From: Candidatus Thalassarchaeum sp.
GTDB taxonomy: Archaea > Thermoplasmatota > Poseidoniia > Poseidoniales > Thalassarchaeaceae
Assembly (NCBI GenBank): GCA_022449945.1
Contig: JAKURM010000003.1
Span: forward strand, 1 to 61,473
Reading direction: 5' to 3'
Length of the DNA: 61,473 nt
The position numbers and the translations under genes were made by a program. Positions 9,038 through 21,499 of the stretch are shown one piece after another. Within the stretch, counting starts at the first letter, position 1. Every line of letters starts with the position of its first letter. The notes under the pieces were generated by a model that did no database searches, was not told the origin of the DNA, and saw nothing but the letters and a program-made list of their open reading frames with translations.

Positions 9038-9107
9038 GAAGTGGTTCGATGTCAGTACTGAACGTTGCTGCCATGAGAATTATGGGAGTAGCCAAGGGAA
9101 TCTCAAA

Positions 9108-9332
9108 CTAGTATTTCTTCGACCGGCATTTGGTGCACTGGAAGAACCAAATATCATCTGGATTGGGGCCATACTCCATTCCACATTTTATCTTCCCATA
9201 CTTTGCTGCCCTCTCCTCGTGATTCTCGGGATATGGGATGACGATGCCACAGGTCCGCCCCTCATGACGAGTGATGTGAAATTCACTACTCTCCGATACA
9301 ACCTGACGGACTGGGACTTGCCCCTCAGGCAT
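9108..9332 (-). CDS. Small 4-Cys protein, unknown function, divergent from the Ubl operon
   Basis: 74 aa with Cys at RTCG, KCG and CTKC, so possibly zinc-binding. A TATA-like AAAATATTA (9350-9358) lies about 20 nt upstream of its ATG, so the transcript may be leaderless. Confidence 0.4.
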   Translation of the reverse strand: MPEGQVPVRQVVSESSEFHITRHEGRTCGIVIPYPENHEERAAKYGKIKCGMEYGPNPDDIWFFQCTKCRSKKY

Positions 9333-9467
9333 GAAATCACGATGCTCGTAAAATATTAGACCCTTTCCTAGAGCGTTTCTGGTCCGACATGATTCGAGCG
9401 GGCCAGAGAATTGCTCGTCCCTTCATATAGGTTGGAAGGCAATCAATCAGGAAAGGAGGTTTAGGCA
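9333..9467. promoter_or_regulatory. Divergent intergenic control region (TATA-like boxes and an SD for the Ubl gene)
   Basis: AAAATATTA at 9350-9358 is near the minus-strand gene. ATATAGG at 9425-9431 lies about 37 nt upstream of the Ubl ATG. AGGAGGT at 9454-9460 lies 7 nt upstream of ATG 9468. Confidence 0.35.
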
Positions 9468-9686
9468 ATGACAGATATCAAGACACTAGTCCAGATCGCT
9501 GATCAGAATGGTCACACCTCCGCGATGATGACGAGAGAAGAAACTCTCGAAGCCGTAGCGGAGAACAATGGCGCCTGGGTTTTCAATGGTGAGGGACAGA
9601 TGGTCCAGCCGGCTCAGCTGGCTGAAGCAGACTTCAGCACCATTGGGACCGTGCGCATCGTGCCAGGTCTGGTAGGCGGACTGTGA
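9468..9686 (+). CDS. Ubiquitin-like / ThiS-MoaD-like beta-grasp protein with masked C-terminal diglycine (…VGGL)
   Basis: 72 aa. The C-terminus TVRIVPGLVGGL-stop resembles ThiS/MoaD/SAMP tails (…GG) but has one extra residue. It has a strong SD and lies immediately upstream of the E1-like and JAB genes. Confidence 0.6.
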   Translation: MTDIKTLVQIADQNGHTSAMMTREETLEAVAENNGAWVFNGEGQMVQPAQLAEADFSTIGTVRIVPGLVGGL

Positions 9687-9719
9687 CACAGAGAAAAACC
9701 ACCATCGGAACTACGTAAA

Positions 9720-9746
9720 CCCCCGCTGGGGACTCTCCAGCGGGGG
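9720..9746 (+). promoter_or_regulatory. GC-rich intercistronic stem-loop between the Ubl and E1-like genes
   Basis: Perfect 10-bp inverted repeat CCCCCGCTGG (9720-9729) / CCAGCGGGGG (9737-9746) with a 7-nt loop. No T-tract follows. Confidence 0.5.
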
Positions 9747-9781
9747 CCAACAATTAACAGAGAAATGAAAGAGATGAGAAA

Positions 9782-10441
9782 ATGGACATATCAGTAATCG
9801 GGGCGGGCGGCATAGGCTCGAACTTTGTTCGAAGCGTAGCACCTGCAATTTCTACTGGCTCCCTTGTCGAATCACTGGGAGGGGCTAATCTAATGATTTT
9901 CGACTCTGACTCGGTTGAGGAGAAAAACCTGAGACTAGGGCAGAGGTTCGGACATGGCGACCTTGGCCTATCCAAAGTCGAAGCGATAAAGAGGTCGATT
10001 CTTGCGTTCGAAGGAGACCTGTTGAGCGTAGTGGCATACGAGCATGACATCAGGGGGGCTGGCGATATCCAGAAGTCCGACGTTGTGGTAGTTTGCGTGG
10101 ACAACATGCATGCAAGGAGGATTGTGCACTCTCTCGATGTCCCATGGCTAGACCTTCGGTGCTCTGGTGACGGTTACGTCGCAATAGACCACAGAGTGGA
10201 GGCATCAGTAGTTTCGAGCCTGTCAAATGACTCGGTTCATTCCCACTCTTGCCAATTGGAAGGATGGGAATCGGGCTTCCTGCAGGCAGGATTCTTAGCA
10301 GCTGCTGCACATGGATACCAGTGGCTTATCGCTATTATGAGGCAGTTAAGCGGTTTCGAAAGGGCGGTTCTTCCGGAGCCCAGATCCACAAGCGTGACGT
10401 TCGGGACCCTTGGGAAACTGCCTATGTCGGAGGAAATGTGA
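9782..10441 (+). CDS. Minimal ThiF/MoeB/E1-like adenylyltransferase
   Basis: Starts directly with the Rossmann loop VIGAGGIGS. Then come FDSDSVEEKNLRLGQRF (the DxDxVexsNLnRQ block), LSKVEA and CVDNMHARR (the DN..aR block). Only 219 aa, with no CxxC zinc motifs and no rhodanese or E2 fusion. Confidence 0.75.
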   Translation: MDISVIGAGGIGSNFVRSVAPAISTGSLVESLGGANLMIFDSDSVEEKNLRLGQRFGHGDLGLSKVEAIKRSILAFEGDLLSVVAYEHDIRGAGDIQKSDVVVVCVDNMHARRIVHSLDVPWLDLRCSGDGYVAIDHRVEASVVSSLSNDSVHSHSCQLEGWESGFLQAGFLAAAAHGYQWLIAIMRQLSGFERAVLPEPRSTSVTFGTLGKLPMSEEM

Positions 10442-10972
10442 ATGGCGGATAGACCCTTATTACCAAGCCCTCCAGTAGAAGAAATTCTGCATGATCGAGA
10501 GGCAGTTAATATTGCCATAGAAGAGGGCAGGCACTCGTCTCTCATCATATGTGAGACCATAGCCGCCCTAACCAAACTAGGGAGGTTCGAGGAGCTCTGG
10601 AAAATAGCCGATAGCATGTCTAAAGAGGTCAGTGTACTAGTTGACGCAGAAGGAAGGGTCTGGGTAGACATAGGAACGAAGAGCAGCGTGAGATTATCTC
10701 CTGCCCAGGGTTCAGTAATCCCATACAGGCTCTGGCTTCACACACATCCCCACGAGGCCTATGCGAGTCAGACGGATAGAGGCACCCTAGCGGGGTGTTC
10801 CATGATTCTTCATGAGGCCATAGTTCTTGGACATGATCACATGGTCAGGCTTCAGAGAAAGCCGGCAGGAATTGGCAGGTCCCTGGAAGACTATGGACCC
10901 TTGTCTACTTGGACCTCAGATGAAGACATTGTGCTCTACTCCAGCCTCAAGGAGGACTACTATGACAGATAA
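10442..10972 (+). CDS. JAB/MPN+ (JAMM-like) metallopeptidase with N-terminal helical extension
   Basis: LWLHTHPHEAYASQTD (10739-10777) gives HxH-x6-S-xx-D, with an upstream Glu (KEVSVLVDAEG). The ATG directly abuts the E1 stop (TGAATG). Confidence 0.6.
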   Translation: MADRPLLPSPPVEEILHDREAVNIAIEEGRHSSLIICETIAALTKLGRFEELWKIADSMSKEVSVLVDAEGRVWVDIGTKSSVRLSPAQGSVIPYRLWLHTHPHEAYASQTDRGTLAGCSMILHEAIVLGHDHMVRLQRKPAGIGRSLEDYGPLSTWTSDEDIVLYSSLKEDYYDR

Positions 10973-11201
10973 GCTAGAGCAAGCCACCAAGAGGCTAAGG
11001 AGGCTAGCAGAAGGAACCGAAGAAGGAACAAGTGGACTATCTATTTCCTCAATGATCGAGGCAGTGGTCGGGCCCGGCTACGATGACGAGCTTGCGGGCC
11101 TTGTATCCATGGCACTCAGGGCCAGTGAAAGCGGGATGAGCCTTGACGAGATAGCAAAGGGGATTCTGTCATTGGAAGACTGGAGATACAGTCATTCCTG
11201 A
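10962..11201 (+). CDS. 79-aa helical protein, possibly an HTH, translationally coupled to the JAB gene
   Basis: ATG at 10962 overlaps the JAB 3' end by 11 nt and follows GGAGGA (10951-10956). The product is MTDKLEQATKRLRRLAEG...SGMSLDEIAKGILSLED, and the last part resembles a helix-turn-helix. The track ORF 10827-11201 is trimmed to this start. Confidence 0.5.
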   Translation: MTDKLEQATKRLRRLAEGTEEGTSGLSISSMIEAVVGPGYDDELAGLVSMALRASESGMSLDEIAKGILSLEDWRYSHS

Positions 11202-11450
11202 TTGAGCAAAGCCTCACGCTTGTGACTGGAAAACACATGATTAAATACCCGCCATGCCAAACCTAAGACGGCCGGAACCGGGCAATAACTAGAGCCTAGC
11301 GAAAGGGGCCCTTGTTGGCAAAAGGACATGCTGAATCTACATGATTCGGCAATGTTCAATAGCCGCATGGATGCCAGGTCGTTTCCCCGATGATATAGGG
11401 GAATTATGGAAATTTATTTTGTAGCAAGGGAAAGAGAAAAGGTGGGAGAA

Positions 11451-12455
11451 ATGACATCAGAAGAAGAGAGTAATAGTCGTCAAGATGACGATAGAAAATG
11501 TAGCTCATGTGGCTATCATGATCTAATAGAAGATTCAAGGCGTGGCGAGATATTATGCCCCAAATGTGGATCCGTGGAACTAGACCGAATCACCGCCGAG
11601 GATGGCGTGGAGATATCCAGGGGGGAAGAATCCCAAAACACGCCATCTAGGAAACTAGGTTCTGCGGCAATCAGAGGAAAGGACCGTGATGCCAGGAAAC
11701 TTGAGAGGACTAGGAAGAGGGAGGACCGGGAGAGGTCGACATTCCTTAGAGAGATAGAGGAGCTAGCCGAGAACACGATAGAAGGGGAACGGACAAAGCA
11801 AGACGTGATGCGCCTTCTAAGGGACCTAGGAGAAGACGAAGATGAGTCTTCTCTTGCAGATAACCGAAAGAAGAGACAGGGCCTTAGAGACCTCGAAGGA
11901 GGAGAAAGAAGGGCATACAGACAGAGACTGTATCTATCTGGGGCCATGAAGGCTCTGAACGACTCGGGTAGGCCCAATCAGGCACCACAGGTTGCCGAAA
12001 GATGGGGTATAAATCACTCAGACCTAATGGACGTCGCTAAGATGTTCAAGAAGATACTGTCAAGGAGAGGCTGTAGAGAAGACGTAGATGAAGACGAATG
12101 GATGAGGCAGAGGTCGGCAATGCTGCTGTACAATCTGGAAAAGATCAGGGAGTTCTTCGCCCAAACGGAAGGATGGGAAGTTGCAAACGAAGTTTATGCC
12201 AGAGCAATCGAGATTCTGAAGAGCCAGAATGAGCCTTTGCCTCCTGACAACTCCTGCGACAAGAAGGTAGTGGGGAACTTCTGCAACATGGTGGAACATC
12301 GGGCGGCCTGGGAGGCGTTTGTCGCTGGAATGAAGGAGATGGGTTTCTCCGATTCCAAGGTTAGAGGTCTGAGGAAGGAACTACCACTCTCTTCGACAAA
12401 GAACTTCACGGAGAGGCGTTCTGGTGCGCTTTCCGAAGGCGGCGAAGAAGAGTGA
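11451..12455 (+). CDS. Divergent TFB/TFIIB-like transcription factor (Zn ribbon plus one recognisable cyclin-like repeat)
   Basis: CSSCGYHDLIEDSRRGEILCPKCGSVEL (11499-11567) matches the TFB N-terminal Zn ribbon. RLYLSGAMKALNDSGRPNQAPQVAERWGINHSDLMDVAKMFKKIL resembles a TFB cyclin-repeat HTH. The linker is long and highly charged (K/R/E). The start is ambiguous: 11406 from the track, or 11451 preceded by GGTGGGAG. Confidence 0.55.
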   Translation: MTSEEESNSRQDDDRKCSSCGYHDLIEDSRRGEILCPKCGSVELDRITAEDGVEISRGEESQNTPSRKLGSAAIRGKDRDARKLERTRKREDRERSTFLREIEELAENTIEGERTKQDVMRLLRDLGEDEDESSLADNRKKRQGLRDLEGGERRAYRQRLYLSGAMKALNDSGRPNQAPQVAERWGINHSDLMDVAKMFKKILSRRGCREDVDEDEWMRQRSAMLLYNLEKIREFFAQTEGWEVANEVYARAIEILKSQNEPLPPDNSCDKKVVGNFCNMVEHRAAWEAFVAGMKEMGFSDSKVRGLRKELPLSSTKNFTERRSGALSEGGEEE

Positions 12456-14381
12456 TCAAGGGATGTGCTGATCGGATCCTGGCAATAGAGCAGCAGTTCC
12501 GGGGTTTACTCGTTCGAACATACTCCAAAGTGGTGCTGCAATGACTCGGATTCGGCCATTGACAACCAGCCTGTGCTCAAGCATCCCGGCGATTTCCTCC
12601 ACATCGTTCCCCAGATCTGCCTCACCGGTTCCGGTCCTGATGTAGATTCTCAGAGACCCTCTGACTCCCTCTTCAACCTTGTCTCTGATCCAACCAGATG
12701 CCTGTAGCATGCGATACAAGACCTGCCTGTCCTCCATGTTGTATGTCCTGAAAGTGGTCTCGCAGTCGTCGAATGAGACGTTTGGTGGCCCATTCCTGTT
12801 CATTGCAGTGAACGTCATCCTAGAACCGAGGGGCATTCGAAGAAGGACCCCCCATAGACGAGGGAATGATTCTGTGCACCTAGTCTGGGTCCGTGCTATT
12901 CGGTTCCTTGCAAGTTGGTACCGAAGCTCTTCGGCTCGATTGTGGGCTGTAACATCTGGGTTCTGGGCCTGTCTCGGCCTATGCCTTCTGATGTGAGACC
13001 TCAGAGTGTCGATGTGATTCTGACTAGACAGGTCATCTAGCAATGAAAGTACGATCGTACCGATCGCATCGCCAAGTACAAGCCTCCTAAGTTCCGGTCT
13101 CTCGACTATGCAGATTGCCCGATCTCGGAATGCAATCCTCTGACGGAATTGGGGCCATCCATGCTGATGGCCTCTTGCTGGTTCAGCATCGCCCGTAATT
13201 GGACTAACTACGAACCTGGTTGAGTGGCCTCCCCTTCCAGGTCTAACTGCGTATCTCAGTCCGCTAGTTCCACGTACATGTATCTCGGTAGAGTCTTCAG
13301 TTATCTCCGCCCTCTGGTTTGCCTCCAGAACGTTTCTGAGGAAGTTTATCCCATTGACGTCCTTGCCTTCCACTACCCTCATTGGGGTGTCGGCAAAGAT
13401 GTGCTGCTGCAGAGTGCGAACCCGTCGGTGGTCAAAGTGGTCGGGCGGGCTCATAACCCAAGTTACTATTCTAGACCAGACCCTGGGGCAACTGTCGAGT
13501 TCGAGTCTCTTCCATCCGCTATTTCTCCTGACCCTTAGTTGGAGCCTTCCTCGATGAATTCTCAGTGTCGGTGGGACCTTTAGGTCTTCATCTGGAGGAT
13601 CAGTTGTCCAATCCATGCTGATTTGGGAATTGTCCCATCTCCTCAGCCACTCAGTTCCCTTGAACATCCATCTCTGTGCCCTGGGTGTTCTGCTACCAGG
13701 GATCCTGTGCCTCTGGAGCATTTCCATTATCCTGTACTCTCGCATCGAGTTAGTGGTGATAATCAGAGATGCGGGGTGGAATAGAGGGGATGTCTCCGGG
13801 GACATGCCCACGTCTGTAGGCAACTTCGAGCAAGCCAGGTCTATCGATCTGAGCAATAGCTTCCAATTCACCCCTTTGGAAACCCCTGGATGCCTGGAAA
13901 GTACCTTCATCAGACCTCTGTAGGGGATCTTGCAAGGCCGCCCATCTAGGAACCAGTACCCGTGTGCATGGCAAAGGTGACTCCCATCGGGGAGTAGTCC
14001 TCCGCGTGCAAGCTTTCGTAGTATTGCTTCGTGCTGCGAACCAATAGACCTGTTCGATATTACACTGGTTATATCGTCCTCAGAAATACTCCAATCAGGC
14101 GGAGGGACAGAAATTCTGTCCTGGGAACTCTCTCCCAACTGAAATGCCCAATCGTACTCATCATCCTGAATCGATCTTATCCTCGACCAAATCTGAGCTG
14201 GCCTCAATCCTGGTTTTCCAAGTTGGCTCCTCACTCTCAGTATCGTCTCTTTGTCCTGGACAAGGCCTACGTTCTGACCAGTTATGTGAGGAGAGAGGAG
14301 AGTACAAACCTGACATTTCTCCTGGTTTCCTTCAACTTCGCCTTTGCAACATTCGCACTTACGAAGATTGGGGTCATTCAT
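12456..14381 (-). CDS. Large Arg-rich protein of unknown function with N-terminal Zn ribbon (paralog 1)
   Basis: 641-aa uninterrupted ORF with N-terminal CECCKGEVEGNQEKCQVC. It shares several collinear blocks with the upstream gene product. The ATG overlaps the upstream stop (ATGAATGA). Confidence 0.6.
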   Translation of the reverse strand: MNDPNLRKCECCKGEVEGNQEKCQVCTLLSPHITGQNVGLVQDKETILRVRSQLGKPGLRPAQIWSRIRSIQDDEYDWAFQLGESSQDRISVPPPDWSISEDDITSVISNRSIGSQHEAILRKLARGGLLPDGSHLCHAHGYWFLDGRPCKIPYRGLMKVLSRHPGVSKGVNWKLLLRSIDLACSKLPTDVGMSPETSPLFHPASLIITTNSMREYRIMEMLQRHRIPGSRTPRAQRWMFKGTEWLRRWDNSQISMDWTTDPPDEDLKVPPTLRIHRGRLQLRVRRNSGWKRLELDSCPRVWSRIVTWVMSPPDHFDHRRVRTLQQHIFADTPMRVVEGKDVNGINFLRNVLEANQRAEITEDSTEIHVRGTSGLRYAVRPGRGGHSTRFVVSPITGDAEPARGHQHGWPQFRQRIAFRDRAICIVERPELRRLVLGDAIGTIVLSLLDDLSSQNHIDTLRSHIRRHRPRQAQNPDVTAHNRAEELRYQLARNRIARTQTRCTESFPRLWGVLLRMPLGSRMTFTAMNRNGPPNVSFDDCETTFRTYNMEDRQVLYRMLQASGWIRDKVEEGVRGSLRIYIRTGTGEADLGNDVEEIAGMLEHRLVVNGRIRVIAAPLWSMFERVNPGTAALLPGSDQHIP

Positions 14382-16083
14382 CGTTATCCCTCGGCCCCGA
14401 TTGAGGCATTCGCCGAATGCTCTCTAGCATTTCTTCTATTGCTTCTATCCTCCATCCATTCCCGTTGTCGATCGAGAATTCTGGGTCTGATTCGGCAAAT
14501 GGATCGGGCTCCGGCTCGGGCTCCGGCTCGGGCTCCGGCTCTGGTTCGTAGTCTGGTTCGTAGTCTGGATCGTATCCCGGATCATGGAATTCCCCATCCT
14601 CCCACATCTCATAGTGCCCCTCAACAGCTGACCACCAACTGTCCAGATCCCCACCTAGGTCGTATTTCTCATTTACATGTTCACAAGCAGAGAGAAGAAT
14701 GTTGAGAGTGAAAATCTGATTCCTTGAAGATATGTCGTTCCGGAGAGCAAGTACGTATGAGGCGCAGATGTCGCCAGCGCACAGGTTCTTGTTTGCAGAT
14801 ATCTGGTTAGGATCGATGCAAAGTTGGATGTGGACATGTGGTTTTCCTATGTGAGTTGAATTTGGAAGCGCGAAAACCATGAACTTTCCAGAATGTTCAG
14901 ACGGGTTGATTACGTATACTATTCCAGATTCCCCCACTACAAGTATACCCGTACTCTCGTCGGGCATGTGCTTTACTGGAAGGGTGGTCGAGTAGATGCC
15001 CAGCGAGTCAATAGTCTCTCGAAGGAAGCGGGAAGACCTCTCCTGCTGGATTGTTGGCCTCCATTCTGAATCTCGCGAGTCCCAAACCCAAAAGATGTTC
15101 TTCGAGAGCTCTGCTCCGTCTTCCTCTGGAGGGTAAAGAATGGAGTTCACCAGGACTCTCCATACCTTCGCATCGACAACCACCGGAGTCGTAGTCGGTG
15201 TTCCCGACTTTAGAACAATTAGACTGAGTCTTCCCCTTTCCACTACTAGCCTGGGATGTATCCTTATGGAAAACAGCCTGCAGAATTCCTCTTCTTTCCC
15301 TTTGCGGATAATCCCGCTCCAAGCCTCCGAGGCTTCTCCTCCGAATTCCGAAATTAATGATAAGGAGTCTCTTGCAATGCTACCCATCGACTTCTCGGCT
15401 GTTGCTCTTCTTCCCGAAATGAGGGCAATCAGTGAAAGGAAAGGGTGAAGATTTACACCTCGGAACTCCATATCTATCGATGGGTCGGGAACGTCGATTC
15501 CCTGCCACCCATTTTGCCTTAGCCATGGTGACCATTCACGGTCTTCCAAACTGGATATGCTTCTACAGCAGCAACTGAGGGCGAGTAGGAAGTGTTTCCA
15601 AGACCTGATGGCGGTAACTCTGTCCGGATTTGCCAGCCACTCGCAAATGTCCAGCATAGGCAATGGCCCTTCCAACCGTATCCCATCGATGGAAATCCTG
15701 TCTTGATGATCTATCTCTAGAAGGCAGTCTGGAAGGGAGTATAATCCCCTAGGAAGGTACCCATAAATCCTGAATGACTCAAGTGCGGACTTCCAGATTC
15801 CGGAGAATCCTTGCGAACTTACCCCATTGGGGCCCCTAGACGATCTGAATCCTGGTGGAAGATTGCTCTCGGGAAATGCCCCAGCAAGACTTAGCATCTT
15901 CTGCTCCGGGCTTAGCCCCCTGGCAGGGTCAAAGATTGAACTAGAGTGTTCTCGCTGCTTAGAATCCGGCCTCTGCGAATGATGGAGGCCGAAGAATGGC
16001 TCTTGGAGAGACTGACACCCAGCGCATCTCTCGTGTCCATCGGGTGCGCTAGAACCACACCACCCATTGCATGAAGACGGCAT
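14374..16083 (-). CDS. Large protein of unknown function with N-terminal Zn ribbon and acidic EP-repeat tail (paralog 2)
   Basis: 569-aa ORF with N-terminal CNGWCGSSAPDGHERCAGC and a C-terminal YDPDYEPDYEPEPEPEPEPEPEPDP. It begins 41 nt downstream of the dus stop on the same strand. Confidence 0.6.
   Translation of the reverse strand: MPSSCNGWCGSSAPDGHERCAGCQSLQEPFFGLHHSQRPDSKQREHSSSIFDPARGLSPEQKMLSLAGAFPESNLPPGFRSSRGPNGVSSQGFSGIWKSALESFRIYGYLPRGLYSLPDCLLEIDHQDRISIDGIRLEGPLPMLDICEWLANPDRVTAIRSWKHFLLALSCCCRSISSLEDREWSPWLRQNGWQGIDVPDPSIDMEFRGVNLHPFLSLIALISGRRATAEKSMGSIARDSLSLISEFGGEASEAWSGIIRKGKEEEFCRLFSIRIHPRLVVERGRLSLIVLKSGTPTTTPVVVDAKVWRVLVNSILYPPEEDGAELSKNIFWVWDSRDSEWRPTIQQERSSRFLRETIDSLGIYSTTLPVKHMPDESTGILVVGESGIVYVINPSEHSGKFMVFALPNSTHIGKPHVHIQLCIDPNQISANKNLCAGDICASYVLALRNDISSRNQIFTLNILLSACEHVNEKYDLGGDLDSWWSAVEGHYEMWEDGEFHDPGYDPDYEPDYEPEPEPEPEPEPEPDPFAESDPEFSIDNGNGWRIEAIEEMLESIRRMPQSGPRDNDE
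14504..14580 (-). repeat. Short in-frame tandem repeat encoding (DYEP)2(EP)n
   Basis: The plus strand reads GGGCTCCGGCTC GGGCTCCGGCTC GGGCTCCGGCTC TGGTTCGTAGTC TGGTTCGTAGTC TGGATCGTA, that is 12-nt units x3 then x2. Confidence 0.8.
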
Positions 16084-16124
16084 GACCGAATGATTGTGAT
16101 TGGGAGTATTTGAAGGGACTAATT

Positions 16125-17189
16125 TCAGGCATGATTTTTCGGTGTCGACAGGTCTGCCAGATAATCGGATACCATTTGCCCGAGTATTGCCTGATCTGCC
16201 TCGCGGTGCAGCTCGACCCTCATAGAAGAAGCCCCAGAAAGGCCCTTTGTGAACGAGACAGCATGACGTTTGAGATTCTTGTTCCTAATCCCGCCGTAGA
16301 GTTCCTCACACAGTTCTAGGTACCTATTCCAGCACCAATGCCTGGCTACAGAGTCGTCATCTATCCCCCAAGGAGGCTCTCCGGTTTCCCAACCGAGATC
16401 TCTCTTGATTTCGTAGAAAATCGTAGGCCGCCCTATTGCCCCCCGTCCAATCATTAGTCCATCCGCTCCCGTCGCTTCCAGACATGCCTCTGCTGTTTTC
16501 GCATCTACCACATCCCCGTTTGCTATCACGGGAATCTGGACAGAATGTGCAATTTCTCGTATCTGTGACCAATCGGCTATCCCAGAGTAGCGCTGCTTCA
16601 GGGTCCTGCCGTGTACGCAAATCCTCTCTACGCCCTCTGACTCCAACCTCTTGCATATCTCCAAGGCAGTGTTGGGGCCCGAACCGGTGCCGAGCCTCAT
16701 CTTCACGGTGATGGGGACTCTGGCGACCGCGATACACTTCCTGACCATGTCGACAACTCTGTCGGGATCCCTTAGCAAGGCCGCTCCCGCATCATTTCGA
16801 CAGACCTTCGGAGCAGGACATCCGAAGTTGATGTCAATGACATCGGCCCGGTCCTGCAGCATCTCAACCGTCTGAACCATCTCTTCGGTAATTCCCCCGA
16901 ATATCTGTGGGATGAACGGTTCTTCTCTAGGATCCGTCTCGACTTTTAGCCATGAGTATGTGTTTCTCCTGGTTAGTCCCGAGGCTGCGGTGAACTCGGT
17001 GACTGTTACGTCTGCTCCGCACTCCCTCGCTAAAATTCTGTATGCGAGATCGGTAACCCCTGCCATTGGCGCTAGGAATATTGGCTTAGCCTCGCCATCC
17101 ACGATTATCGCCCTAGGTGCTCTCCTTTGAGTGCGTCGTGAACTCAGAAGGTAGATTCCCAGTCTGCGACTTCCTCGGCCAATTCCCAC
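16125..17189 (-). CDS. dus: tRNA-dihydrouridine synthase
   Basis: FLAPMAGVTDLAYR, IDINFGCPAPKV, VKMRLG, VHGRT and IANGD are Dus TIM-barrel blocks. The true start is uncertain, because the first ~46 nt of the ORF overlap rps2. Confidence 0.85.
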   Translation of the reverse strand: MGIGRGSRRLGIYLLSSRRTQRRAPRAIIVDGEAKPIFLAPMAGVTDLAYRILARECGADVTVTEFTAASGLTRRNTYSWLKVETDPREEPFIPQIFGGITEEMVQTVEMLQDRADVIDINFGCPAPKVCRNDAGAALLRDPDRVVDMVRKCIAVARVPITVKMRLGTGSGPNTALEICKRLESEGVERICVHGRTLKQRYSGIADWSQIREIAHSVQIPVIANGDVVDAKTAEACLEATGADGLMIGRGAIGRPTIFYEIKRDLGWETGEPPWGIDDDSVARHWCWNRYLELCEELYGGIRNKNLKRHAVSFTKGLSGASSMRVELHREADQAILGQMVSDYLADLSTPKNHA

Positions 17190-17761
17190 TCCATGTCATT
17201 CTTCACGGTGCCGTCGGCCTTCAGCATCTCCCGGGCGAGCAACCAGTAAACCAGTGCCAGAGACCTTCTTCCCTTGTTGTTTGCCGGGAGGGCAAGATCA
17301 ACGTTCCTCAGCCTATTGTTGGCATCGCATATAGCGACCACGGGGAGTCCCGATTTGACAGCTTCAGAAAGTGCCTGGGAGTCTGCAGCCGGATCTGTAA
17401 CCAAGATTACTTCGGGCTCTATGTAAGTCCTGAGCCGTGGGTTTGTCAGAGTCCCTGGGATGAAGCGGCCGACGATGTGTCTGGCTCCGATTGCCCGGGC
17501 GAACTTCCTAGCTGGCCTCTGTCCGTACTGGCGGGCACTGACTATCAGAATTCGTTCTGACTCGTAATTAGAGAGGAAGTTTGCGACAACCCGGATCCTA
17601 GCATCGGTCTGGTTTACATCGATTAGGTGAAGGCCACTGCTGTCTTGCTGAATGAGATCCAGGAAACCTCGCATGTCCGCAGACTTCTGGTTGGTTCCGA
17701 TGTGAACGGCGTGACGCTCGTACACGTCGTACGGGACAAGTGGTGACATGCTCTCCGCCAT
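17144..17761 (-). CDS. rps2: 30S ribosomal protein uS2 (archaeal/eukaryotic type)
   Basis: HIGTNQKSADMRGF...LIDVNQTDARIRVVANFL...ILIVSARQYGQRPARKFA...GRFIPGTLTNP...ILVTDPAADSQALSEA...LPVVAICDANN...VDLALPANNKGRRSLALVYWLLAREML. Confidence 0.9.
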   Translation of the reverse strand: MAESMSPLVPYDVYERHAVHIGTNQKSADMRGFLDLIQQDSSGLHLIDVNQTDARIRVVANFLSNYESERILIVSARQYGQRPARKFARAIGARHIVGRFIPGTLTNPRLRTYIEPEVILVTDPAADSQALSEAVKSGLPVVAICDANNRLRNVDLALPANNKGRRSLALVYWLLAREMLKADGTVKNDMEWELAEEVADWESTF

Positions 17762-17834
17762 TCGGTTTCCTCAGCAGCGCGGCGACCTACCAGTGATTGA
17801 TAAGCGCTACGCAGGTGAGTATTCGACCAAAACC

Positions 17835-18458
17835 TCAGTCTTCAAGCTCCGAAAGGAAGGTACACTCGCCGTCGTCATGTGCCTGGGGGAAGTGAACGCA
17901 GGGCTTTGTAACGGTGGCATATAGGTCAAAGTGGTCATGGAATGAGAGCTGTTCGATGGGAGTAGTCATTCCATATCCCCTGGCCTCTACCTCTAGGGTC
18001 CAGGTTCCTTCGATGAAGTCCAATGTTGAGTCCGTCCACTCCTTACGATGTTCTGCACCCTGGGTGGCCCTTACCTCCCAGAAAGGGTCACCTCCGGACG
18101 ACTGGGTGCCAGGGGCCCAGAGTCGCGCCTCGATGTACCGTAACTCGTTCGTCTCGTTCCCAATGATATCCTCGATAGTACTTGAGTAGGGGATCTGCGC
18201 CGTGAAGGTGATTACCAGTTTTGATACGGTCTCATCGAAAACTAGGTCAGTCTCGTTCTCGTAGAGTACTGAGTTCAGTTCAGCCCCGGTGTCAAAGGTC
18301 ACGGACCACCCCACTGTGATGGTCTCCGATGTGTGCTCGGGAGCATCCCGCCAACTCTCCATTATCTCTCTCTGGATGGTGAGTGCCAGACACCCACTGG
18401 ATAGGGAAGAGAGCATCATTATGGATGCCAGGCATAGTGCCCTACGGGTACGGCTCAT
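17835..18458 (-). CDS. Secreted lipoprotein-like protein, unknown function
   Basis: The track ORF (to 18701) overlaps the groEL 3' end. The internal ATG at 18458 gives MSRTRRALCLASIMMLSSLSSGC, a signal peptide plus lipobox-like Cys. Confidence 0.5.
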   Translation of the reverse strand: MSRTRRALCLASIMMLSSLSSGCLALTIQREIMESWRDAPEHTSETITVGWSVTFDTGAELNSVLYENETDLVFDETVSKLVITFTAQIPYSSTIEDIIGNETNELRYIEARLWAPGTQSSGGDPFWEVRATQGAEHRKEWTDSTLDFIEGTWTLEVEARGYGMTTPIEQLSFHDHFDLYATVTKPCVHFPQAHDDGECTFLSELED

Positions 18459-18612
18459 GGACTCCGGAGTCAATAGGACATCTTCAACTCGTTTGCTAAT
18501 TGGTGCCTCTCGGTACTCATAGGGAACGTCAGCGCAAATGCTCAGTAGCCCTTCGTCGTCATTGAGGCAATCCGGTGAAAGAGTGTTTGAGAGATGAATG
18601 TTCTGCGATTTC

Positions 18613-20268
18613 CTAGAATCCCATTCCGCCCATTCCACCCATGCCTCCGCCCATGTCGGGCATCGCAGGGGTGTTTTCCTTCTGTTCCGGGTCATCAGCA
18701 ATCAGGGTCTCTGTTGTTAGTACCAGCCCTGCGATAGACCCTGCCGATTGTAGAGCGTTCCTGGTCACCTTGGCAGGATCCAGTATTCCTGCCTCCATCA
18801 TGTCCACATACTCGCCGGTTCTTGCATTGTATCCGTAGTTGTCATCATCGCTCGACAGAATGTTCGCGATTACGTCATCGCCGTCGGCGCCTGCGTTCTC
18901 GGAAATCTGCCAGGTAGGTGCTGACAGTGCCGCGTGGACCAGGTTGATCCCTACAGCTCTATCTCCGTCAGCGGATTTCGCGAGGTCTTTCAGGCAATCG
19001 CGGGCCCTGAGAAGTGTCACTCCCCCTCCGGCTACGACGCCTTCCGCCATAGCCGCCCTGGTTGCATTCAGCGCGTCGTCTACGCGTGCCTTTGTTTCCT
19101 TGACCTCAGTCTCTGTGGCCGCACCTATCTTGAGAACCGCTACTCCTCCCGTGAGTTTGCCAACTCTCTTCTCAATCTTCTCTCGGTCCCACTTGCTCGT
19201 GGCGAGCTTCGCCTGCCCACGCAGTAACTCTGCGCGCTCCTCTGTCGCCTTAGCATCTCCACCCCCTCCAACAATGGTTGTCTTGCTCTTTCCTACTATC
19301 ACCCGGTCAGCGCTTCCTAAGCTTGTTGGACCCTGGGCCTTTAGGTCTGCCCCCTGGTCCTTGAACAATGGATTTGCACCCGTCAATACTGCGATATCTT
19401 CCAGTTGTTCGGCTATCTCGTCTCCGAATCCTGGTGCCTTTACCGCGACTGCCTTTACGACCTTACTAACCACGTTCAGGACAAGTGTAGCTAGAGCCTC
19501 TCCCTCAATGTCTTTTGCGACTATCAGCAGGGGCCTCTTCTGCTGGACGCTTGCCTCCAATGAGGGAAGCAGGTCCTGAGCTGAGTTGATTGTGTGATCG
19601 GTGAGTAAAACTAAGGGGCTCTCGTGGACGGCTTCCCTCTTCTCACGGTCAGTAATCATGTAAGGGCTAACGTAGCCCTTGTTGAATTCCATACCCTCTA
19701 CGACGTTCAGAGAAGTCTCGATTGACTTTGCTTCCTCGACAGTGATAACTCCCTCTCTTCCAACGGCATCTACTGCTTCCGCAATAAGGGACCCTATCTC
19801 TTCGTCATTGTTAGAAGCAATTGTCGCTACTTGTTTGATCGTCTCTCCGGTCTCGACGGGGACCGCTCGTTCCTTCAGAGACTCTACGACCGCTTCGATG
19901 GCCGCGTCAAATCCAGCCTTGAGTTCGACAGGACTCGAGCCCGACTCCATGTTCTCTAGTCCATGGTGGCACAGGCTCTGGGCTAGTATAGACGCGGTAG
20001 ATGTCCCATCTCCAGCGTTGTCCTGTGTTTTTGAGGCTACTTCCTTCACAAGTTTGGCACCCATGTCAGCAAAGGGATCTCCCAATTCGATGTCCTTTGC
20101 AATGGTTACGCCGTCGTTGATTATCGAAGGGCTTCCCCAGGACTTCTCCAGTACTACTGTTCTCGCGGCAGGCCCAAGGGTAACTTTGATCGCATTAGCA
20201 ACTGTGTCTATTCCCTCAAGCAGCTTTTCTCGCGCCTCTGCGCCGTAAATGATCTTCTTTGCTCCCAC
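18613..20268 (-). CDS. groEL: Group I chaperonin GroEL (Cpn60)
   Basis: AKKIIYGAEAREKLLEGIDTVANAIKVTLGP, AGDGTSTASILAQ and the C-terminal GGM repeat (MGGGMGGMGGMGF). Confidence 0.95.
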   Translation of the reverse strand: MGAKKIIYGAEAREKLLEGIDTVANAIKVTLGPAARTVVLEKSWGSPSIINDGVTIAKDIELGDPFADMGAKLVKEVASKTQDNAGDGTSTASILAQSLCHHGLENMESGSSPVELKAGFDAAIEAVVESLKERAVPVETGETIKQVATIASNNDEEIGSLIAEAVDAVGREGVITVEEAKSIETSLNVVEGMEFNKGYVSPYMITDREKREAVHESPLVLLTDHTINSAQDLLPSLEASVQQKRPLLIVAKDIEGEALATLVLNVVSKVVKAVAVKAPGFGDEIAEQLEDIAVLTGANPLFKDQGADLKAQGPTSLGSADRVIVGKSKTTIVGGGGDAKATEERAELLRGQAKLATSKWDREKIEKRVGKLTGGVAVLKIGAATETEVKETKARVDDALNATRAAMAEGVVAGGGVTLLRARDCLKDLAKSADGDRAVGINLVHAALSAPTWQISENAGADGDDVIANILSSDDDNYGYNARTGEYVDMMEAGILDPAKVTRNALQSAGSIAGLVLTTETLIADDPEQKENTPAMPDMGGGMGGMGGMGF

Positions 20269-20272
20269 TTGA

Positions 20273-20542
20273 TCACCCCATTACCCTAGCCTGGATGTCC
20301 TCTTCCTGAATTAGCAGGTAATCCATTCCCATCCATTCAATCTTCGTTCCGCTGTACTGCCTGTATATCACGCGGTCTCCTACTGAGATGCTTTTTGCGT
20401 CTGGGCCGACTGCCTCGACCAGTCCCACATTCATCTTCTCGCGTGCCTCCTCGGGTAGAAGAAGGCCTGAATCGGTCTTCTCAGGGGCGTTCTCCATTGC
20501 TATCAGCACCATTTCTCCAATCGGTTCTATTCCTATTCCCAT
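20273..20542 (-). CDS. groES: Co-chaperonin GroES (Cpn10)
   Basis: IEPIGEMVLIAMENAPEKTDSGLLLPEEAREKMNVGLVEAVGP...GDRVIYRQYSGTKI...YLLIQEEDI. Start set at ATG 20542 (MGIGIEPIG), preceded by AAGGAG. Confidence 0.85.
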   Translation of the reverse strand: MGIGIEPIGEMVLIAMENAPEKTDSGLLLPEEAREKMNVGLVEAVGPDAKSISVGDRVIYRQYSGTKIEWMGMDYLLIQEEDIQARVMG

Positions 20543-20584
20543 GAAAGAGCAACTCCTTGTTTGCAAGGCTCGCAATTTCAAGTC

Positions 20585-20593
20585 TATTTTAAA
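20585..20593 (-). promoter_or_regulatory. Archaeal TATA-box-like element upstream of groES
   Basis: The minus strand reads TTTAAAATA about 45 nt upstream of the groES ATG, leaving room for a ~20-nt leader that carries AAGGAG. Confidence 0.4.
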
Positions 20594-20638
20594 CCAAACG
20601 AAAGGAGCTCATCCTTACGAACGTGAAGTTTAGGCGAG

Positions 20639-21499
20639 TTACTCTTCTTCTTCGGAGCGATTTTGCGGGTTTGAGAAGTAATCGATGATTAGCGGTGATG
20701 CTAGAATTAGTAGAATTGTCAATGATAGGTAGTTCCATGAGCTGCTTGTTACAGAACCATGGTTTCCAGAAGTTAGGAGCTTTATCGCCCCAATCCATGG
20801 TATCTCGGAGGAAGCGACCCCAACAACCCATTCGTCCTCAACAGGGAGGACTGGGTTCCCTTCTGGAAATGTGAAAAGACCACTTTTTCCCTGTGAGTTT
20901 GCTGATGGCTGATCGATCATGCAGTCGTTATTGTCCCCAGCGGTCAGGTATCCCTCGTTTGGTGGCGTCCACTGTTCGACTTGCATCTGATAGGTCCCAC
21001 CATGGTATGAGGAGCATTCGATATCCAAAGTCCAGGTTACATTCTCAACATTCACTAGAGTTGTCCCTGGGACGTCCCAACCTCCAGATTCGTTCAACCT
21101 AACCTCGAGGAGTGCTCGGTGAATCACCGGAGTCTCGGAGCCCCCATTCTTCTTGTAGATAATCACGTCACCGGGCATTCCATGGGACTCGTACCCGTAG
21201 TTTTCGTTTCCCTCCTGGGTGGCTTCGACAAGTGTAACAATATTCGTCCTCTCCATACTCATCACAAGAACCAGGTCACCTGGATCTATGGCTCCGACTG
21301 ATCCATCCTCTTCGTCGTGCATCATTGACTTTGACTCGACTACCACCATAGGGGGAAATGTCCCTGTGGCCAGCCACATCGAGCTAAGAATCAGGACTAC
21401 TAAACCACCGGCTAGTATCGCCTCACGGACCAGCCAACCTGCACCTGTGTCTCTCGGTCCGGGGGTGCTAGTGAGTAGGATGGGGGCCTCTTCAGACAC
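20639..21499 (-). CDS. Signal peptidase I, archaeal/Sec11-like (S26B), with a large insertion
   Basis: An N-terminal TM, then VVVESKSMMH...IDPGDLVLVM (SxSM..-GDL box) and GDVIIYKKNGG..TPVIHRAL. There is also a C-terminal TM. Confidence 0.65.
   Translation of the reverse strand: MSEEAPILLTSTPGPRDTGAGWLVREAILAGGLVVLILSSMWLATGTFPPMVVVESKSMMHDEEDGSVGAIDPGDLVLVMSMERTNIVTLVEATQEGNENYGYESHGMPGDVIIYKKNGGSETPVIHRALLEVRLNESGGWDVPGTTLVNVENVTWTLDIECSSYHGGTYQMQVEQWTPPNEGYLTAGDNNDCMIDQPSANSQGKSGLFTFPEGNPVLPVEDEWVVGVASSEIPWIGAIKLLTSGNHGSVTSSSWNYLSLTILLILASPLIIDYFSNPQNRSEEEE

Follow-up and report, generated by a model that had tools for sequence, protein, structure and literature searches.

Eight adjoining genes at 9108 to 16083 of a stretch of DNA from Candidatus Thalassarchaeum sp. 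(assembly GCA_022449945.1, contig JAKURM010000003.1, positions 1 to 61,473; this whole stretch of 61,473 nucleotides is here called the window) form a conserved cassette. The cassette is best read, with a probability of roughly 45%, as a system of the E1-JAB type that conjugates a ubiquitin-like (Ubl) modifier, with candidate, very divergent, E2-like carriers and a partner that bears a TFIIB-type zinc ribbon. This reading starts from what is seen directly: the gene content, the conservation of the genes as a unit, the identities of the E1 and of the JAB peptidase, the masked Gly-Gly of the modifier candidate, and a cysteine that is invariant in the large proteins. The eight genes, and one element between two of them, are the following.

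9108 to 9332, minus strand: small four-cysteine protein, 74 amino acids (aa), an open reading frame (ORF) with Cys28, Cys50, Cys66 and Cys69; probably zinc-binding; divergent from the Ubl gene
9468 to 9686, plus strand: ubiquitin-like modifier candidate, 72 aa, ending ...VPGLVGGL, with a masked C-terminal diglycine
9706 to 9746, plus strand: conserved element separating the Ubl gene from the E1 gene, in which the motif CGGAnnnACGTAA precedes a GC-rich hairpin of 12 bp
9782 to 10441, plus strand: E1-like adenylating enzyme of the ThiF family, 219 aa, without a rhodanese domain
10442 to 10972, plus strand: JAB/JAMM metallopeptidase, 176 aa, containing HTHPHEAYASQTD; begins directly 3' of the E1 stop, in the same frame
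10962 to 11201, plus strand: conserved acidic helical protein, 79 aa (the 79-mer); 11-nt overlap with the JAB gene
11406 to 12455, plus strand: protein with a TFIIB-type zinc ribbon (PF08271) and a lineage-specific helical C-terminal domain, 349 aa
12456 to 14381, minus strand: large zinc-ribbon protein, 641 aa, of a superfamily apparently found in Poseidoniales only; core at about residues 339-491, with the invariant Cys424
14374 to 16083, minus strand: second large zinc-ribbon protein, 569 aa, a paralog of the first; its core contains the same Cys (…LCID…GD…) and its tail is an acidic Pro-Glu (PE) repeat

The identities of the E1 and the JAB peptidase hold, that of the E1 being solid and that of the JAB being supported by an invariant JAMM motif. 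When all eight proteins were searched against Pfam, NCBIfam, PHROGs and PADLOC, the sole family matches were ThiF, for the E1, and the TFIIB ribbon. The ThiF match (Pfam, E = 3.2e-14) covers residues 3-117 of the 219 in the E1. The motifs GxGGIG, DxD..N..Q, K, D..R, RCxGDG and SCQ are invariant in this family, and two cysteines, one in RCxGDG and one in SCQ, are invariant with them. The SCQ cysteine lies, presumably, near the position of the crossover-loop cysteine of MoeB and ThiF. No rhodanese domain was matched in the E1 by Pfam or NCBIfam. Its scores fall under the cut-off of every NCBIfam equivalog (ThiF, MoeB, UbaA, PRTRC-ThiF), and against the Protein Data Bank (PDB) the E1-JAB fusion draws weak ThiF/MoeB matches only. 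Because those scores lie so far below every equivalog cut-off, the E1 is, as judged from its sequence, a distinct lineage of E1. Membership in PRTRC was considered and rejected; TIGR03736 gives 40.4 bits against a cut-off of 144.75, and no other PRTRC model was matched by the cassette proteins.

The JAB peptidase has no Pfam match, whether the protein of the window or 12 family members are used as queries. Its JAMM motif, E...W-x-H-x-H-P-x2-A-Y-x-S-x-T-D, is nevertheless invariant in the 12-member alignment, and all 16 of the best PDB matches to a profile of the family are JAMM deubiquitinases aligned at the motif (best E 2e-3). These include AMSH-LP, STAMBP, Sst2 and a Caldiarchaeum Rpn11-like protein (E 0.015), with yeast Rpn11 and BilC next at E of about 1. 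An E1-like enzyme that is fused or adjacent to a JAB peptidase, and that carries no rhodanese domain, is a mark of conjugation-type operons; thiamine and molybdenum cofactor sulfur-carrier operons, in turn, never carry a JAB (PMC1779556).

In most relatives, the E1 and the JAB are a single protein of about 400 aa (for example in contigs L011, L013, L014, L026, L034 and L051), and 120 of 120 homolog clusters among the matches listed (of 216) have this fusion length. The two ORFs of the window share a reading frame and are parted at 10439-10444 by TGA and then ATG only. This looks like a true split, not like programmed readthrough, since the close relatives L017 and L019 have E1 and JAB ORFs that overlap in different frames.

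The Ubl candidate is the best conserved gene of the cassette, with 94% identity in L017 versus 75% for the 641-aa protein, and it always adjoins E1-JAB. Its start codon is preceded by GGAGG. In 10 of the 12 aligned sequences, the protein ends in VPGLVGG followed by L, N, A or LC; the other two end in AAG. The names E1 and JAB that the initial annotation had given to two of these genes can be kept, and so can Ubl, as the name of a modifier candidate.

In the proposed mechanism, where every transfer step, like the biological output, is one that we infer, the modifier would have a β-grasp fold. The JAB/JAMM peptidase would, most likely, and by analogy with known systems, trim the 1-2 residues that mask the Gly-Gly of the Ubl, and probably would also undo conjugation. 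This would resemble Bub, where a peptidase-E1 fusion cleaves a Ubl precursor (PMC11601596). The ThiF-type E1 would then adenylate the exposed glycine, and may hold the Ubl on the invariant SCQ cysteine. From there, the Ubl would be handed to the invariant core cysteine of the two large paralogs, which are suggested to be very divergent E2-like or E2/E3-like carriers because the elements of their core follow one another as in a UBC fold, with a helix and four strands before the Cys-loop and further helices after it. Taken as obligate partners, the TFIIB-ribbon protein, the 79-mer and the four-cysteine protein could be targets, adaptors or regulators, and this set of partners hints at a link to the transcription machinery.

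The nearest known counterparts are the bacterial operons of E1-like, JAB and Ubl (and at times E2-like) genes that Iyer, Burroughs and Aravind described in 2006 as types 6a-6e (PMC1779556), and that are now known in part as CBASS (cyclic oligonucleotide-based antiphage signalling system) Cap2/Cap3, Bil and Bub (PMC11601596). The archaeal cassette shares with this class a rhodanese-less ThiF-type E1 fused to, or directly before, a JAB peptidase, a small adjacent protein that ends in glycine, and an operon without metabolic enzymes. It shares as well the presence of extra zinc-binding proteins, for which Iyer et al. raised E3-like adaptors as a possibility (PMC1779556). Unlike this class, which is sporadic in bacteria, the cassette is archaeal, restricted to the Poseidoniales, and vertically inherited within that one order at a stable locus. 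Further, it has no recognisable UBC/Prok-E2 sequence family, having instead two order-specific zinc-ribbon proteins of about 600 aa, and it adds the TFIIB-ribbon protein and the 79-mer. Here the E1 domain precedes the JAB, and the N-terminal E2 that marks type 6a is missing.

A second comparison is with the operon of Caldiarchaeum subterraneum that encodes Ub, E1, E2, a RING-E3 and Rpn11 (PMC5654768, PMC6043591). Both have a modifier, an E1, and a JAMM protease for processing the C-terminus. In contrast to the Caldiarchaeum operon, the cassette lacks a canonical ubiquitin, a UQ_con E2 and a RING protein, and its E1 is a minimal ThiF-type domain of 219 aa.

The initial annotation had called the two large proteins zinc-ribbon paralogs, and so they are; BLASTP between them gives an E of 8e-10, profile-profile comparison gives a probability of 98.8% (E 1e-16), and both begin with a CxxC...CxxC ribbon. 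Orthologs keep that N-terminal ribbon, and for this reason the second large gene is correctly read as 569 aa; gene callers had truncated this gene in public contigs. An exhaustive profile search collected 180 clusters at 50% identity, and since every member with a named source is from Poseidoniales, the superfamily appears to be specific to that order. It includes a third paralog of about 430 aa in Thalassarchaeaceae and forms of about 811-845 aa in Poseidoniaceae; a metagenome scan with the Poseidoniaceae homolog found one short contig. When 26 diverse cores were aligned, only four residues were invariant: one Leu, one Cys (Cys424, in an h-C-h context), and two Asp, the first usually in LPxGD at 6-10 residues past the Cys and the second in LLxD.

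The AlphaFold2 (AF2) model of the 641-aa protein is confident, with a predicted local distance difference test score (pLDDT) of 83.9. When Foldseek compared the full model with the PDB, UBE2S came first, and E2, UEV or RWD folds made up 17 of the top 50 matches. With the core predicted separately, the UEV-like domain of VPS37A came first and UBE2G1 second, with 12 E2/UEV and 2 RWD folds in the top 50. In the viral library, BFVD, a Catovirus E2 came first, and E2s stood at ranks 1, 4, 10, 17 and 37. These folds are, we assume from an estimate of our own, well under 1% of either library. The enrichment looks systematic, even as each match is weak. In the domain model, the elements of the core follow in the order α1, β1-β4, a variable insert, the Cys, a short helix, and a long α2 that begins 12 residues past the Cys. 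This modelled order matches that of the UBC fold.

A number of observations weigh against this reading. None of the Foldseek matches has an E below 0.001, the best lying at 0.3-0.9, and the E2/UEV matches have target-normalised TM-scores of 0.29-0.44 with a root-mean-square deviation of 8-10 Å. Pfam, run on 66 members of the superfamily, finds no UQ_con or Prok-E2 at E<=10, and sequence and profile searches of the PDB with the 641-aa family and with a broad core alignment return nothing. Comparison of the core by hhalign with an alignment of human E2s (approximate sequences, of lead-level value) gives a probability below 1%. The superfamily alignments hold no HPN-like motif. The Ubl candidate, for its part, has no sequence relatives in Pfam or in PDB sequence and profile searches, and hhalign comparisons with ubiquitin, ThiS and MoaD (again approximate sequences, at lead level) give no support, with a ThiS/MoaD probability below 1%.

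Genomic context adds to this list. The 569-aa paralog is dispensable in some lineages, being missing in L027 and L030. The 430-aa paralog (L049/L050, 10001-11293) sits among housekeeping genes, where it overlaps trm1 and adjoins an AIR-synthase-like gene. The 811-aa Poseidoniaceae form (L048, 10001-12436) has no N-terminal CxxC ribbon, stands near AddAB-like genes, and has no Ubl, E1 or JAB gene within 10 kb. The function of the superfamily need not, therefore, depend on a Ubl, because these members do without adjacent Ubl, E1 and JAB genes. In sum, an E2-like role is the leading, and still unproven, interpretation of the large proteins as modelled, because the structural matches are weak and no sequence method supports an E2.

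The main rival, which we regard as rather unlikely, is an account in which no E2 is involved. Here, the system would be like that of the SAMPs of Haloferax with their E1, UbaA; the E1 alone would activate the Ubl and attach it directly or with further help. The large proteins and the TFIIB-ribbon protein would then be substrates or regulated partners, and the invariant Cys would serve in metal binding or in an unrelated catalysis. Conjugation of a Ubl without an E2 has, of course, this archaeal precedent, and the evidence for an E2 is nowhere statistically significant. The Haloferax system with its protease HvJAMM1 shares with the cassette an archaeal E1, a JAMM protease, the lack of a canonical E2, and a link to a transcription factor; the basal transcription factor TBP2 of Haloferax bears ubiquitin-like isopeptide bonds and goes to proteasomes (PMC4895103). 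Further, the pair of a large-family gene and a relative of the TFIIB-ribbon gene that is found in Poseidoniaceae, without adjacent Ubl genes, seems to be an older unit that the Ubl genes joined later.

The details of the two systems differ, however. The E1 is not an ortholog of UbaA, scoring 28.2 bits against the UbaA equivalog NF047750, whose cut-off is 450. The Ubl is not a detectable member of the ThiS/MoaD group, matching no such model in Pfam or NCBIfam at E<=1. The cassette is tight and holds five further conserved genes. In addition, a system without an E2 leaves unexplained both the repeated enrichment of E2/UEV folds in two independent libraries and the single Cys that is invariant across the whole superfamily.

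The initial annotation had called the TFIIB-ribbon protein a TFB-like factor. The likeness to TFB, TFIIB and BRF stands for the N-terminal zinc ribbon, where PF08271 is matched at 30.1 bits against a cut-off of 29, and where a 15-member profile finds the N-terminus of BRF2 (3.3e-5) and the ribbon of Pyrococcus furiosus TFB (3.7e-5), aligning with both. It does not extend to the remainder. The same profile finds nothing beyond the ribbon and linker, the NCBIfam TFIIB model covers only residues 19-69 (24.5 bits against a cut-off of 384), and a cyclin-fold core was undetected by sequence in Pfam, NCBIfam and a PDB profile search. As the matches are confined to the ribbon, the protein has a TFIIB-type ribbon without being a demonstrable TFB. 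Its gene probably starts at the second ATG, 11451 (giving 334 aa), and not at 11406, because an RBS-like (ribosome-binding-site-like) GGTGGGAG lies upstream and because the same start is called in other strains.

The C-terminal ~250 aa of this protein are a lineage-specific helical domain, which occurs also without a ribbon. It is homologous to a ribbon-less protein of 310 aa in Poseidoniaceae whose gene is two genes from a large-family gene (hhalign probability 93.8%, E 1.7e-7). This proximity suggests that the pairing of a large-family protein with the helical domain is older than the Ubl genes and separable from them.

The 79-mer is present after E1-JAB in all cassettes, and no family, structural or PDB relative was found by Pfam, NCBIfam or a PDB profile search, and its earlier description as HTH-like (helix-turn-helix-like) is unsupported. 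The four-cysteine protein has no Pfam family; orthologs stand at the same relative position in L017 (50% identity), L020 and L023, and small proteins with G-x-CG...CG...CxxC stand there in L013 and L014 as well.

How firmly do these genes belong together? At the finest scale, the E1 sequence is identical on at least 23 public marine metagenome contigs, in all of which the gene order is the same. In each of the three public contigs compared, all eight proteins are 98.7-100% identical to those of the window, and two public contigs aligned as DNA are 99.8% identical to it over the block and flanks. Because strains are so nearly identical as DNA, the differing lengths of the 569-aa gene are choices of start by gene callers; true length variation between strains was rejected. 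In the C-terminal part of this gene, at 14500-14550, a GC-rich simple repeat encodes a Pro-Glu/Pro-Asp repeat PEPEPEPEPEPEPDP, where the 12 positions that are gapped between strains probably lie, and which draws spurious matches from unrelated metatranscriptome contigs.

At greater distance, clustering at 90% identity sorts the homologs of the 641-aa protein into 126 clusters. The few that have source names are labelled Candidatus Thalassarchaeaceae or Thermoplasmatota, together with one bacterial label that probably reflects a mis-binned contig. A scan of species-representative genomes gave 31 loci, nearly all labelled Poseidoniales, Thalassarchaeaceae or generic archaeal metagenome-assembled genomes. 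Gene neighbourhoods were then compared for homologs that share 30-83% identity with the 641-aa protein. Wherever a contig extends far enough to show the arrangement (L011, L013, L014, L016, L017, L019, L021, L023, L026, L028, L030, L032, L034 and L051), the 569-aa and 641-aa genes run one after the other toward the TFIIB-ribbon gene, which, with the 79-mer, E1-JAB and Ubl genes behind it, faces them on the opposite strand. The initial annotation had proposed a module, and the block is a genuine one, its genes co-occurring in this order in about 15 other contigs of Poseidoniales, down to 30% identity. In the most distant contig, L011, identity to the window is 56% for the Ubl, 43% for the E1, 42% for the JAB, 29% for the 79-mer, 25% for the TFIIB-ribbon protein, 30% for the 641-aa protein and 34% for the 569-aa protein.

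Three different sets of flanks are seen among these relatives. In the commonest context, the cassette has LysE and a small double zinc-ribbon protein on one side and methylmalonyl-CoA mutase on the other. This arrangement occurs in most genomes, including the deepest branches and a contig of 1.12 Mb; being the commonest and the most widely spread, it is probably ancestral. In the clade of the window (L016, L017, L019), the cassette lies between dus and a membrane protein, which indicates one relocation of the cassette to the dus locus. In a third clade (L021, L023, L028, L030), extra genes of 216/240-aa families stand between E1 and Ubl. There, L030 (3377-9887, 14971-18720) has two Ubl genes and no 569-aa gene, the upstream region being readable in that contig; its upstream neighbours encode a GHKL-type ATPase (HATPase_c_3), a ResIII/SNF2-type helicase and an S51 peptidase. 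Several contigs of the third clade (the L021, L023, L028, L030 group) end directly upstream of the 641-aa gene.

The initial annotation had spoken of an accessory module, to be checked by synteny, by k-mer composition and by a search for viral and plasmid homologs, and had offered a lineage-specific chromosomal system as its fallback. Neither of the outcomes that the annotation had named as refuting it is seen; the block does not keep one context throughout the lineage, and its genes do co-occur elsewhere. The k-mer comparison finds nothing foreign, since the tetranucleotide composition of the block is host-like (z <=1.6) and within the normal range of the window. No homologs of the 641-aa, E1-JAB and JAB proteins turned up in 50,697 phage records, in IMG/VR contigs or in 72,556 plasmids, as searched with tblastn for the phages and plasmids and by IMG/VR scans with the 641-aa and JAB families. 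No tRNA gene was found in the entire window, as the annotation had said.

The same annotation had seen no obvious flanking direct repeat. The sole repeat that brackets the block is a 25-nt inverted pair, 76% complementary, at 9084-9108 and 16268-16292, with its right arm within dus. We estimate that chance alone would give about 4-5 such pairs in 8.2 kb, and for this reason the pair is probably meaningless. Composition, repeats, tRNA genes, and virus and plasmid searches are all negative for mobility, which had already been judged unsupported. The accessory label does not survive these results, which argue against an island, nor the retention of the commonest context across deep divergence. 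The fallback fares better. As the commonest context is kept across deeply diverged genomes, inheritance has long been vertical across contigs of Poseidoniales. The block is a vertically inherited, lineage-specific chromosomal cassette with occasional relocation, found mainly in Thalassarchaeaceae within that order.

This history bears directly on the proposal that the cassette serves antiviral defence of the Bil, Bub or CBASS-Cap2-Cap3 kind, which we consider quite unlikely. Under that proposal, the Ubl would tag viral proteins (of magroviruses, for example) or host proteins on infection, and the large proteins would be sensors or effectors. Bacterial E1/JAB/Ubl operons, with or without an E2, have indeed been shown or inferred to act against phages (PMC11601596, PMC10097602, PMC10557695). 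The E1 has weak PADLOC matches to CBASS E1-E2 models (best 5.2e-5), the superfamily of large proteins has expanded into several paralogs, and L030, with its duplicated Ubl and without the 569-aa gene, carries its cassette beside the GHKL-type ATPase and the helicase. Known defence systems are, however, patchy and borne on islands, while this cassette, even in genomes that diverged deeply, keeps a stable place in the chromosome with housekeeping genes on both sides, and has the composition of its host. Further, the E1 domain is generic, the other seven proteins match no PADLOC model, and no nuclease, pore or other effector domain was detected by Pfam, members of the superfamily included.

A sulfur carrier of the ThiS/MoaD/CysO/QbsE type is very unlikely indeed. 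The JAB would here unmask the Gly-Gly, the E1 would adenylate it, and a thiocarboxylate would donate sulfur to a cofactor, in tRNA thiolation, or to a metabolite. The best NCBIfam similarities of the E1 are, to be sure, with adenylyltransferases of the ThiF/MoeB type, and JAB unmasking of a carrier that ends in Gly-Gly plus an extension is known from cysteine and siderophore pathways (PMC1779556). Nonetheless, the scores of the E1 are all far under equivalog cut-offs and it has no rhodanese domain, the partners are zinc-ribbon and TFIIB-ribbon proteins, and no version of the cassette encodes a sulfurtransferase, a synthase or other metabolic enzyme (Pfam, NCBIfam).

Least credible of all, and already contradicted, is the idea that the block is an accessory or mobile island gained in recent times, or that unrelated genes happen to lie side by side. 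Contexts do differ between clades, and the cassette of the window interrupts two housekeeping stretches. Against this idea, all eight genes have remained linked across large evolutionary distances, their composition is host-like without integrase, tRNA or significant flanking repeat, no homologs were found in the phage, IMG/VR and plasmid collections, and block and flanks are 99.8% identical between strains of the species to which the window belongs.

Conjugation by way of E1, JAB and candidate E2-like carriers remains the preferred reading, and it would have consequences. The Poseidoniales (Marine Group II), to which the window belongs through the family Thalassarchaeaceae, are among the most abundant planktonic archaea. 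To our knowledge, no member has been cultured, and for most genes that are specific to the lineage no role has been assigned. For eight such genes together, the cassette provides a testable hypothesis, and all of its parts are small enough for heterologous reconstitution. It adds an archaeal, vertically inherited case to a class of E1-JAB-Ubl systems otherwise drawn from scattered bacterial operons, several of them antiviral. If the large proteins are E2-like, the range of the UBC fold widens and the Euryarchaeota gain a second route of protein tagging beside sampylation. If they are not, the cassette still offers a compact model of tagging that needs no E2 and is tied to a TFIIB-ribbon protein.

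A bolder form of the hypothesis, improbable as we now see it, holds that Marine Group II has a Ubl pathway, unrecognised before, whose E2 step is performed by giant zinc-ribbon proteins of UBC fold, so divergent that sequence methods miss them, and which has a dedicated TFIIB-ribbon partner. Were this true, a Ubl would control the basal transcription machinery, or another process associated with RNA polymerase, and there would be an independent branch of E2 evolution outside Asgard/TACK, in an archaeal group that ranks among the most abundant of the surface ocean. Searches of the literature that combined Poseidoniales or Thalassarchaeaceae with ubiquitin terms gave nothing relevant, and no paper describing the cassette was found. 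The only prior link between Marine Group II and ubiquitin components that was found is a report of RING and UCH domains in one single-cell genome (PMC4327156).

Between the Ubl and E1 genes, the hairpin at 9706-9746 (ΔG -26 kcal/mol, z -4.7) exceeds every other 40-nt hairpin of the 61-kb window in stability, and the motif CGGAnnnACGTAA before it occurs once in the window. Seven other loci (L017, L019, L020, L013, L034, L014 and L011) have motif and hairpin in the corresponding position, with stems of 11-17 bp whose sequences differ among clades; MAFFT/RNAalifold could not align the hairpin across clades. Within the window's clade, two stem positions change on both sides with pairing retained. 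The hairpin may set the ratio of Ubl to enzyme transcripts, or be an attenuator or a transcript-end element. Rfam has no match in the block, hairpin included. As to transcripts, an index of RNA runs held no run carrying the region, and in four sets of metatranscriptome contigs the sole matches were the spurious ones to the PE-repeat.

In genomes with the common context, the small zinc-ribbon protein is of family PF13453 (2.9e-8, two stretches), and its gene is always divergent from, and just upstream of, the 569-aa gene (L011 7686-8027, L013 7804-8271, and equivalents). The window has no such gene in this place, and the protein may be a further member of the cassette where it occurs. In L012, at 15059-20908, about ten small unannotated ORFs stand beside the cassette in a context that otherwise equals that of L013, and methylmalonyl-CoA mutase is cut to 269 aa; these ORFs may be foreign DNA inserted beside the cassette.

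In the window itself, an ORF check placed the eight genes and both housekeeping flanks where the initial annotation had them. The two halves of the cassette converge with 0 nt between them (12455/12456) and dus lies 41 nt beyond the 569-aa gene (16083/16125), both as first measured; the 641-aa and 569-aa genes overlap by 8 nt. A second copy of the cassette within the window was considered and rejected. One flank carries guaB, msrA, a fatty-acid desaturase and membrane proteins, and the other carries dus, rps2 and groEL/groES. At 18613-20581, adjoining rps2 and dus, this archaeal genome encodes a GroEL of the bacterial type, with a GGM-repeat tail, together with GroES, and the groEL/groES-rps2-dus arrangement is kept in related contigs.

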